From the NCBI RefSeq assembly GCF_056712565.1, contig NZ_CM160072.1: a stretch of 64,000 bases of DNA; one strand, given 5' to 3'. Each line of letters starts with the position of its first letter. The stretch's first letter is position 1. Of this stretch, positions 60,580-62,998 are shown in pieces. The translations under genes and the position numbers were made by a program. A model generated the notes under the pieces. That model was not told the DNA's origin. It did not search any database and was given only the letters and a program-made list of their open reading frames with translations.

Positions 60580-60674
60580 GGAAGATCGTCGTCTCCGGTG
60601 AGGCGGCTGGACTTCAAATCCAGTTGGGGCCGCCAGCGGTCCCGGGCAGGTTCGACTCCTGTGATCTTCCGCCA
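60580..60674 (+). tRNA. selC: tRNA-Sec (selenocysteine)
   Basis: GGAAGATCGTCGTCTCCGGTGAGGCGGCTGGACTTCAAATCCAGTTGGGGCCGCCAGCGGTCCCGGGCAGGTTCGACTCCTGTGATCTTCCGCCA: 95 nt, UCA anticodon in loop CTTCAAATC, long variable arm, CCA end. Confidence 0.9.
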
Positions 60675-60726
60675 AAATGCCTCTCCTGAACTCTCCCGAC
60701 GTCAACAACACTCCTTCGGAGGCGAC

Positions 60727-61764
60727 ATGTCAGACAAAGACTTAACCCAGCCCCCAGCAGGCGAGTTTATTATGTTTGCCAGCGGTGACGGAAGAGTGCG
60801 TGTTGAATGTCGCTTTGAGTCAGACACAATCTGGTTATCCCAGGCGGCAATGGCTGAACTGTACGATAAAGATGTTCGCACTATTAACGAACATTTAATC
60901 AATATATTTTCCGAAGGTGAACTTGTTCAAAACTCAACCATCCGGAAATTCCGGATAGTTCGCCAGGAAGGAAAACGTCAGGTTTCCAGAGAGATAGACC
61001 ATTACAACCTCGAAGCCATTCTCGCTGTCGGCTATCGCGTTCGCTCGCCTCGAGGCACGCAATTCCGCCAGTGGGCAACGCAGACGCTTCAGGAATACCT
61101 GATCAAAGGTTTTGTGATGGACGATGAGCGGCTGAAGAATCCGCCTGTCGGTTCATCGGTTGTGCCCGACTATTTTGATGAGATGCTTGAACGCATCCGC
61201 GATATTCGCGCCAGCGAGCGTCGGGTATATTTGCGGGTGCGGGAGATCTTTGCTTTAGCTGCCGACTATCAGCCATCGCTTAAAGAAACCACGCAATTTT
61301 TTCAAACCATCCAGAATAAACTGCATTTTGCCTGTACCGGGCATACCGCTGCGGAACTCATCCACAAACGAGCAGATGCCAGCCAGCCGCACATGGGCTT
61401 GACCAGTTATAAAGGTGAAGAGGTACGTAAGGGCGACGTGACGGTGGCAAAAAATTATCTCACCCAGGATGAGGTCAGCGAACTTAATCGCGTGGTTAAT
61501 ATGTGGCTGGACTTTGCCGAGGATCAGGCCCGTCGTCGTCAGCAAGTCTTTTTGCGCGACTGGCAGGATAAGCTGGATCAGTTCCTGCAATTTAACGACC
61601 GAGAGGTTCTACAGGGCGCTGGTAAAATCAGCAAGAAAATGGCCGATGAAAAAGCGCAGGCGGAGTATGTTCAGTTTGCCGAACAACAACGGCGCTTAAA
61701 AGAAGCCGAAGGCGAGAAGGATATCGCTGGTTTGCTACAGTGGAATAAAGAGTCGAAAAAGTAG
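60727..61764 (+). CDS. RhuM-family protein (virulence-associated / DNA-binding family, selC-island type)
   Basis: 345 aa from ATG 60727 (MSDKDLTQPPAGEFIMFASGDGRVRVE...); resembles RhuM of selC-associated islands; immediately 3-prime of selC. Confidence 0.65.
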   Translation: MSDKDLTQPPAGEFIMFASGDGRVRVECRFESDTIWLSQAAMAELYDKDVRTINEHLINIFSEGELVQNSTIRKFRIVRQEGKRQVSREIDHYNLEAILAVGYRVRSPRGTQFRQWATQTLQEYLIKGFVMDDERLKNPPVGSSVVPDYFDEMLERIRDIRASERRVYLRVREIFALAADYQPSLKETTQFFQTIQNKLHFACTGHTAAELIHKRADASQPHMGLTSYKGEEVRKGDVTVAKNYLTQDEVSELNRVVNMWLDFAEDQARRRQQVFLRDWQDKLDQFLQFNDREVLQGAGKISKKMADEKAQAEYVQFAEQQRRLKEAEGEKDIAGLLQWNKESKK

Positions 61765-61875
61765 CCCGGAATCCCCCCAAACGCCATACGCAAAACCATT
61801 TGGGGGTACTTATGGGGTTACTCATTTATCAAATTCAAAATATAAACATTAAATCAATAACTTAACCATCAAATG

Positions 61876-61903
61876 CGACTCCTGTGATCGCCAAAATGCC
61901 TCT
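61876..61903. repeat. imperfect direct repeat of the selC 3-prime end (cgactcctgtgatc-gccaaaatgcctct); island att remnant
   Basis: Matches selC 3-prime region 60653..60685 except for loss of ttcc. Confidence 0.6.
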
Positions 61904-61971
61904 TCAGTGATCCCCATCCTGCTTATTTCTGAGCAACCTGACCCTGCTGATGTATCTGGTAGTATGACAGA

Positions 61972-62193
61972 GTGATTCGTTTTTCTTGCCGAGTGTACGA
62001 AAACGTCTTCCTTGCCACCGACTATCAACCGTCACTCAAAAAAACCTCTCTTTTTTTCAAGCTATCAAGAATAAGTTGCATTTTATCTGCACCGGACACC
62101 AGCCATCCATATATGGCTTTTACCTGCTACAAAGATGAAGAAGTGCATAAATGTGATGTTAAAACAATCAAAGAAAAATTACATGCGCAATAA
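61972..62193 (+). pseudogene. degenerate fragment of a second rhuM-like gene
   Basis: 73-aa ORF ...LATDYQPSLKKTSLFFK...HPYMAFTCYKDEEVHKCDV parallels the RhuM-like segment ...LAADYQPSLKETTQFFQ...QPHMGLTSYKGEEVRKGDV in 60727..61764. Confidence 0.5.
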
Positions 62194-62333
62194 TTTCACT
62201 ATAACATTATAATCCATGGTGAAAATAACACTGCACAAGGATTGTCATCATCAAACTCATCGGAACTATTTTTTCTGTCGTCATTGGTGTAATACTGATT
62301 GTAAGTATCCTTTCAGGAGATTATTTTTGCCGT

Positions 62334-62702
62334 GTGGGGCATGGAACTTGTAAAGCAGCCAAAAGCGCTAGGCATTTAATTGAAAGTAAAGAGAAAAACA
62401 GAAGTAGTCGCGTCAAAGTCTTTAGCACGCATATTAATTTGAGTCATCCAGCGGCATCCTGGCTAGCAACTCAAACTTGCGCTAACAATATATTCAATCT
62501 GCTTCAAAACAATAATGCCATTTATTTATTCAAAAACGATAATAAAATTGAACTGCGAATGGGGTATGATTCTTTTTTCTCTATTGAAACGATTGATAAA
62601 ATTAACAAAGAAAACATCAAAGAAATAAAACTAAAAAATGATACAACATATGTTTCTCTTCCTAATCCAACCATTTTAATAACCAACGACATCAACACCT
62701 GA
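62334..62702 (+). CDS. hypothetical protein (122 aa) in AT-rich island DNA
   Basis: ORF only; low GC region between selC remnant and yicL. Confidence 0.3.
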   Translation: MGHGTCKAAKSARHLIESKEKNRSSRVKVFSTHINLSHPAASWLATQTCANNIFNLLQNNNAIYLFKNDNKIELRMGYDSFFSIETIDKINKENIKEIKLKNDTTYVSLPNPTILITNDINT

Positions 62703-62998
62703 ACGACAGTTTTCTATTTCTGTTCTGGATGATGATAACAAAGAAAATCTACCTACCGATACCGCACCTTGTTTTACAATTGGTATTCCTGATGAATATA
62801 CTAAAGCCATAGAGTTATTGAACATTAAATAATTAAATTTCATATTGAGTTTTTTTAAACACCATATGAATAATTGTTATATGTCATTATTTCCTCCATT
62901 CACTAAAACTGATTGATTACTCTACTCCCTCACCGTCATCGGTAGTGGTATCCTTAACGTATATTGATGAAAAGACAAAACAGTATGCAGAGGGAAAA

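Follow-up and report, generated by a model that had tools for sequence, protein, structure and literature searches.

Introduction

The tRNA-Sec gene selC is a classic integration hot spot. In a 64,000-nucleotide (nt) stretch of contig NZ_CM160072.1 from NCBI RefSeq assembly GCF_056712565.1 (the whole stretch is termed the window below), selC is followed by an intact rhuM gene, then by a second copy of its own 3′ end, and then by AT-rich DNA that reaches to yicL. How did rhuM come to stand alone beside selC, and what are the repeat and the AT-rich DNA remnants of? RefSeq annotates only tRNA-Sec, a ‘virulence RhuM family protein’, a hypothetical protein and yicL here, and the repeat, the DNA before it and a rhuM fragment beyond it carry no annotation.

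A first-pass annotation, made from the sequence alone, described positions 60580–62998 as a decayed selC island shaped by successive integrations and deletions. We consider it very probable that the selC stump of phylogroup-B2 Escherichia coli is a P4-type integrase island, its integrase of the family found in pathogenicity island (PAI) I of strain 536, which has been deleted internally and lies beside an older decayed unit, and that its rhuM gene has been kept for defence.

The attachment repeat and the island arms

selC (60580–60674, plus strand, anticodon TCA) is detected by ARAGORN and by Rfam model RF01852 (83.8 bits) and is the integration target. The locus sits between yicJ, on the minus strand, and yicL (62999–63922, plus strand), a conserved right flank in the annotations of both UTI89 and K-12. 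Compared with K-12, the variable DNA begins at 60690, downstream of selC, and ends at 62969. The K-12 gene setC, suspected of being absent, has no tblastn match anywhere in the 64-kb window.

The selC 3′ end together with the next 10 nt (60653–60684, plus strand) is repeated directly at 61876–61903. The second copy is made of CGACTCCTGTGATC and GCCAAAATGCCTCT, each exact, with the TTCC between them gone, so that 28 of 32 nt are shared. This gapped pattern occurs at only two places in the 64 kb and in none of 100 shuffles, and blastn finds the pair with an E-value of 2.3e-6; the imperfect second selC end that the first-pass annotation had placed here does align with selC. We take the two copies as the left and right attachment sites of an island, the core of attL and the displaced attR (both on the plus strand).

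Other islands use the same end. In strains 536 and Nissle 1917 the large island at selC terminates at an identical repeat from which TTCC is likewise missing, and attR is the same in CFT073 and in a P4-like element of strain CU42ET-1. Homology to the window (98% identity) begins at 61788 in 536 and at 61722 in Nissle 1917, the latter point falling within the 3′ end of rhuM, so the right end of the Nissle island keeps the last 43 nt of that gene. The ∼90 nt preceding attR, in which a TTTGGGGG-N6-ATGGGG motif falls, are conserved in 11 loci of 8 genera, among them Escherichia, Yersinia, Hafnia, Erwinia, Pseudescherichia, Morganella and Proteus, and we read this segment (61788–61875, plus strand) as the right arm of the attachment site, the P′ arm of attR. 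On the other side, the ∼35 nt past selC (CTCTCCTGAACTCTCCCGACGTCAAC...; 60675–60708, plus strand) align with the sequence ahead of the integrase gene in 536 and Escherichia albertii, and with the equivalent position in Hafnia and Huaxiibacter. They are a remnant of the left arm, shortened by an internal deletion.

The loss of TTCC is itself recurrent. In a comparison covering 61876–61903 of the window and six other loci (L003, L004, L014, L064, L077 and L078), the same four bases, GATC[TTCC]GCCA, are missing from the displaced selC end in B2 E. coli, Erwinia, Morganella and two Proteus species. One base is gone from the equivalent copy in the divergent Escherichia strain E69, and in Pseudescherichia vulneris the copy is complete. 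The recurrent loss may reflect a mutational hot spot or a systematic effect of recombination.

The surviving gene and the deletion before it

The intact rhuM-like gene that had been noted after selC is a 345-amino acid (aa) open reading frame (ORF) at 60727–61764 on the plus strand (RefSeq WP_001280586.1, also annotated in UTI89), and is the sole island gene left. Its protein matches Pfam PF13310 with an E-value of 4.5e-118 and 393.5 bits, against a gathering cut-off of 33.7, over profile positions 1–250 of 252. Neither the ORF list nor tblastn yielded an integrase ORF or fragment in 60675–62969, in agreement with the earlier remark that none is left between selC and yicL.

The edge of the deletion can be located closely. 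Homology to the upstream region of rhuM at other loci starts only at 60717, 10 nt before the ATG, and 75 nt that are conserved upstream of rhuM in other genera are absent from the window copy; the deletion junction therefore falls between 60709 and 60716. The missing 75 nt include TCTCTGGCATACTAAG, which lies ∼55 nt upstream of rhuM elsewhere (loci L012, L014, L019, L022 and L073 were compared) and may be an extended −10 promoter element. About 10 nt of native upstream sequence are retained, including a GGAGG ribosome-binding site, and the rhuM ATG now lies 52 nt past selC. Because the usual upstream region of rhuM has been deleted, and because no terminator-like site was found on the plus strand between selC and rhuM, the gene is probably transcribed by read-through from the selC promoter.

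The segment 60675–61903 shows insertion at a tRNA 3′ end, flanking repeats and arms homologous to those of integrase-bearing islands. It varies in presence and absence among strains, yet a precise empty site is missing from the 5,426 complete E. coli genomes that formed our comparison set. Since no integrase stands beside the tRNA gene, we file it as a remnant, rather than an island, of the tRNA-gene-associated (P4-type integrase) class.

The order of events we infer is the following. An island carrying a tyrosine integrase of the 536 PAI I family would have entered the 3′ end of selC by site-specific recombination; integration would have rebuilt the tRNA end at attL and shifted the old end to the far side, as attR. 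rhuM would have been the last gene of this island, adjoining the right arm. A later internal deletion, running from ∼35 nt past selC to ∼10–13 nt before rhuM, would have removed the integrase and all other cargo, leaving the left-arm stub, rhuM, the right arm and attR. The DNA at 61904–62969 would be an earlier unit of like make-up in a more advanced state of decay, with a leader, part of a rhuM gene and a small frameshifted gene.

Relatives and intermediates in other genera

A scan of one genome per species gave the 80 closest loci encoding RhuM relatives. At 26 of them a tRNA-Sec gene lies upstream of rhuM in the same orientation, at a distance of 150 to 7,000 nt, and in 16 of these 26 the gap is <900 nt, too short to hold an integrase gene.

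Several of the selC loci retain more of the island. Enterobacter sp. BIGb0383 (locus L007) and Proteus hauseri (L078) have an intact integrase adjoining selC, 79–85% identical to the 536 integrase, followed by rhuM. E. albertii has selC, an integrase missing its N-terminal third, a DUF4942 gene and rhuM; in Yersinia ruckeri the order is an integrase fragment, an insertion sequence, a DUF4942 remnant and rhuM, with attR 118 nt further on. Integrase fragments are also present in Morganella and Photorhabdus, and DUF4942 remnants in Hafnia and Erwinia; PAI I of 536 also ends with a DUF4942 gene. The deletion junctions vary among lineages, so the deletions are independent. From these loci a consistent picture emerges of an island family laid out as selC, integrase, cargo, DUF4942, rhuM, right arm and attR, which appears to have been reduced internally again and again with rhuM surviving.

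Units of att and rhuM are also found stacked, in four loci (L005, L070, L077 and L078). A rhuM fragment lies directly past attR in Proteus columbae and likewise in Providencia rustigianii, and residues 150–304 of RhuM can be traced past attR in P. hauseri (76% identity). In strain E69 (L005 1–3760, CP089930.1) att occurs three times in series, the last copy being followed by a leader like that of K-12 and by the initial 52 nt of rhuM; the locus examined there reaches 727 nt upstream, and selC lies outside it. The shared arms and attR, the intermediates and the stacked units together support the successive integrations and deletions that the first-pass annotation had suggested.

Distribution in E. 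coli

The whole arrangement is present in 843 of the 5,426 complete genomes, the rhuM segment in 844 and the segment 61904–62969 in 1,103. Positions 60400–63100 are 100% identical in UTI89, S88, APEC O1, IHE3034, the type strain ATCC 11775 and many others; the earlier note had asked whether the region might match an intact, characterised island, and none of the many identical B2 genomes has one there. About 260 genomes have the distal segment without the rhuM segment, and the examples examined hold other DNA between selC and the repeat: PAI I in 536, the large selC island in Nissle 1917 and the P4-like element in CU42ET-1. This last (E. coli O99:H6; L086) is a P4-like satellite in selC with primase-helicase, Icd-like and ash genes, and it ends at the attR of the stump. 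Another ∼3,280 genomes match the rhuM segment over only ∼55–75 nt; among these, the records listed annotate the stretch as a RhuM family gene (compare yicT). The junction expected from precise excision, selC joined to 61904 onward, was found in 0 of the 5,426 genomes.

Divergence within the locus is uneven. Between sequence type (ST) 131 and the window, rhuM differs by 0.28%, three synonymous changes that leave the protein identical, against 0.8–1.2% for yicI, yicJ and yicL. The rhuM figure fits vertical descent under constraint.

The window holds an integrase elsewhere, an intact P4-type tyrosine integrase of 450 aa at 14780–16132 with Arm-DNA-bind_3, Phage_int_M and Phage_integrase domains. 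It is 27% identical to the selC integrase of 536, and no tRNA gene was detected near it. UTI89 has rfaF and rfaC at the matching coordinates under a constant offset, and the window is not collinear with UTI89 there; the gene probably marks another island.

A proposed older unit beyond attR

Given the way integration works, whatever lies beyond attR would have adjoined selC earlier. This DNA opens with what its position suggests is the leader of an older unit (61904–61977, plus strand), the start of which is weakly left-arm-like; in two less decayed relatives, E69 and the metagenomic contig L088, the 5′ end of rhuM lies ∼100 nt past attR. Next comes the degenerate rhuM fragment that had been reported past the repeat, a frame-disrupted pseudogene (plus strand) in which RhuM residues 166–245 can be traced over 61978–62181 with 40% aa identity (tblastn E-value 9.8e-13). 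At the nucleotide level, 62018–62098 is 78–81% identical to 61262–61343 (blastn E-value 5.8e-14), and the fragment gives a weak PF13310 match (E-value 8.9e-4).

The remainder (62191–62969) has 32.7% G+C and extends to the return of K-12 homology; the AT-rich character claimed for the DNA before yicL is plain against 49.4% for the whole window. rhuM itself has 49.7% G+C, and the arm and older unit 33–40%. The 122-aa ORF that had been called an orphan is present at 62334–62702 but is no orphan: it is the middle piece of a frameshifted gene (62216–62831, plus strand), a remnant of a gene of 165–230 aa, with frameshifts near 62270–62280 and 62685. The Nissle version encodes 165 aa and differs from the window by a one-base indel near 62685; intact forms of 171–230 aa (P0005 and P0006) have an N-terminal hydrophobic, putatively transmembrane, stretch, whose counterpart in the window is shifted to a different frame. 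All homologues are Escherichia or metagenome sequences, and the small gene has no Pfam domain and nothing in NCBIfam or PHROGs.

The same unit is less decayed in L088, where att is followed by rhuM pieces split by a FliB_C-like gene, an intact 230-aa gene and yicL. There the 230-aa gene (2008–2700; related coordinates are 6431–6928 in L004) begins 13 nt past the end of the old rhuM, a spacing which suggests that rhuM and the small gene formerly made up a two-gene unit. In both E69 and L088 the FliB_C-like gene inserted into the oldest rhuM copy lies on the minus strand. Searches of the window found no right arm or attR for the older unit, so an island origin is proposed for it by analogy.

Selection on rhuM and the nature of its product

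Pairwise dN/dS (ratio of nonsynonymous to synonymous substitution rates) for rhuM against ungapped orthologues is 0.03–0.13, so the gene is kept by purifying selection. This modifies the description of the locus as a decayed island, which is right for the lost integrase and cargo and for the older unit, but not for the surviving rhuM, which is not decaying.

RhuM belongs to a large family (29,152 clusters at 50% identity). Longer members carry a Bro-N fusion or are otherwise probably chimeric gene calls. The window protein is a full-length match to the PADLOC candidate PDC-S05 (PDLC04852, E-value 2.8e-173), and gave no significant match in NCBIfam, PHROGs or a sequence search of the PDB. An AlphaFold model built from a 52-sequence alignment including distant representatives has a predicted local distance difference test (pLDDT) score of 82, against 51 from 33 close homologues. 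The protein would begin with a winged-helix DNA-binding domain, with a helical domain besides. The Fic/DOC fold, a proposed functional analogue of RhuM, came out negative in a test of structural similarity.

Context points towards defence. In Enterobacter L007, a type I restriction-modification operon includes a gene for an 88%-identical RhuM, placed between hsdS and hsdR. An association of RhuM with restriction-modification has been noted before, and a toxin domain proposed (Anantharaman et al., PMC3710099); one distant RhuM-domain PDC-S05 gene cut the plating of T7 and T5 ∼1000-fold (preprint, bioRxiv 10.1101/2024.09.26.614923). Our best guess is that RhuM is a DNA-binding defence or toxin protein, and we infer that the window gene has most likely been retained for a role in defence against phage or foreign DNA.

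The Enterobacter operon lies in a compact selC island (L007 2490–13069) with an intact integrase, an hsdS fragment, hsdM, hsdS, rhuM, hsdR and a YgjP-like peptidase gene, and rhuM overlaps each neighbour by 4 nt, with overlapping stop and start codons. In Erwinia sp. ErVv1 and Huaxiibacter chinensis (L008 and L010) a RhuM 87% identical to the window protein is encoded ∼5.5 kb downstream of a tRNA-Leu gene; close RhuM relatives therefore also travel in islands at another tRNA site.

Alternative histories

The same anatomy could be read as a unit that still moves. Under this account the stump is an integrase-less, att-flanked mini-element (cis-mobilizable or satellite-like), which could still be excised, moved or co-mobilised if another island supplies a selC-specific integrase. 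It has kept both att copies and a well-conserved right arm, short selC–rhuM units without an integrase make up 16 of the 26 selC-linked loci and occur in many genera, and between ST95-type and ST131 genomes rhuM is slightly less diverged than its flanking genes. The three rhuM differences are all synonymous, however, and fit vertical descent; the left arm is down to ∼35 nt, so that the integrase arm sites there are probably gone, and the core region of attR is short by 4 nt. Junctions that differ between genera favour independent decay over the spread of one element. With the empty selC–distal junction in none of the 5,426 genomes, active mobility is given less weight, and we regard this account as quite unlikely. 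A bolder proposal is that rhuM-only stumps are a selected end state, in which selC islands across Enterobacterales are repeatedly whittled to one att-flanked defence gene on which new islands stack, the B2 rhuM having been captured by the tRNA transcription unit; in its stronger form such stumps are mobilised in trans. We hold this proposal to be doubtful. If true, selC holds a record of island turnover, and B2 strains have a defence gene expressed by selC read-through.

Alternatively, rhuM may never have been island cargo. As an old, vertically inherited chromosomal neighbour of selC in Enterobacterales, it would have had att and arm sequences left around it by passing islands. In favour of this, rhuM follows tRNA-Sec in the same orientation at 26 of the 80 closest loci, which range from Escherichia as far as Proteus and Photorhabdus, and identity drops roughly with taxonomic distance; in K-12 (yicT) and the ∼3,280 other E. 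coli genomes no more than a short piece of rhuM is left at the locus, and the older unit is without a right arm of its own. Yet the rhuM genes of E. albertii, Y. ruckeri, Hafnia and Erwinia are internal to the island, with integrase or DUF4942 remnants on one side and the right arm with attR on the other, and no att copy separates DUF4942 from rhuM there. Identity also departs from the phylogeny (E. albertii 87%, Erwinia 87%, Citrobacter 89%), close homologues occur downstream of tRNA-Leu and in restriction-modification operons, and within E. coli the gene is polymorphic (844 of 5,426 genomes), all of which makes a purely vertical history unlikely. The side-by-side arrangement of two like units, each with a tRNA end, a leader and rhuM, could also suggest a local tandem duplication of the selC 3′ end and rhuM without site-specific integration, the second copy having then decayed. 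In that case the exact att cores would have to be reconciled with rhuM copies of only 78% nucleotide and 40% aa identity; moreover, the repeat boundary is the att core of unrelated elements (PAI I of 536, the Nissle island and the P4-like element) and nothing in the second unit corresponds to the right arm. On these three grounds we reject tandem duplication, which is very improbable.

Significance

The stump is a remnant of a known kind of element at a known hot spot, and its sequence is already in databases. What goes beyond the ordinary is that rhuM is, in many genera, recurrently the last surviving island gene, that att–rhuM units stack, and that the same four attR bases are lost in Escherichia, Erwinia and the Morganella/Proteus group. 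The scar accounts for the lack of setC, the lone rhuM and the unannotated rhuM pseudogene beside selC in phylogroup-B2 E. coli, and it defines precisely which att core and arm sequences the medically important selC islands use. The B2 rhuM (UTI89, S88, APEC O1, ST131) is a handy natural single-gene test case for the activity of the RhuM family, because rhuM repeatedly outlives its islands, is under purifying selection and has a near-identical copy in a type I restriction-modification operon.

Comparison with known systems

In K-12 the order is selC–yicT′–setC–yicL, with the same flanks as in the window. yicT is a 132-nt rhuM pseudogene (residues 121–185) right after selC; setC is present, and the second att copy, the right arm and an intact rhuM are absent. 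The variable segments (K-12 locus 3333–5219, window 60690–62969) are otherwise unrelated.

The cis-mobilizable elements (CIMEs) derived from ICESt1/ICESt3 of Streptococcus thermophilus are also flanked by att sites and devoid of recombination and transfer genes, and can form tandem arrays with incoming elements. The stump likewise has att on both sides and no recombinase or transfer genes, and could in principle form such arrays; it differs in recombinase family and host, and shows no sign of mobility among the 5,426 genomes.

Salmonella pathogenicity island 3 (SPI-3), the source of the rhuM name, is ∼17 kb long and carries mgtCB, misL and other genes. It too is a selC island, with rhuM in its selC-proximal part, and is likened to the stump here by description, not by sequence. 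That selC-proximal part varies between serovars (PMC3680342).

The closest match in attachment is with the selC islands of 536 (PAI I), CFT073 and Nissle 1917, which share with the stump the same selC att site, an attR without TTCC, the right arm from 61788 (98%) and the left arm. The stump differs from the large islands in having no integrase, rhuM as its only cargo and a length of 1.2 kb against tens of kb; conversely, 536 has lost rhuM and Nissle retains only those last 43 nt. Other large selC islands are the locus of enterocyte effacement (LEE) and SHI-2.

As to the gene itself, the nearest known counterparts are the RhuM proteins of restriction-modification operons. The window gene stands alone, without such partners or the usual upstream region, but it is of the same family (PF13310, PDC-S05), and the 88%-identical protein among those partners in Enterobacter is encoded in a selC island as well.

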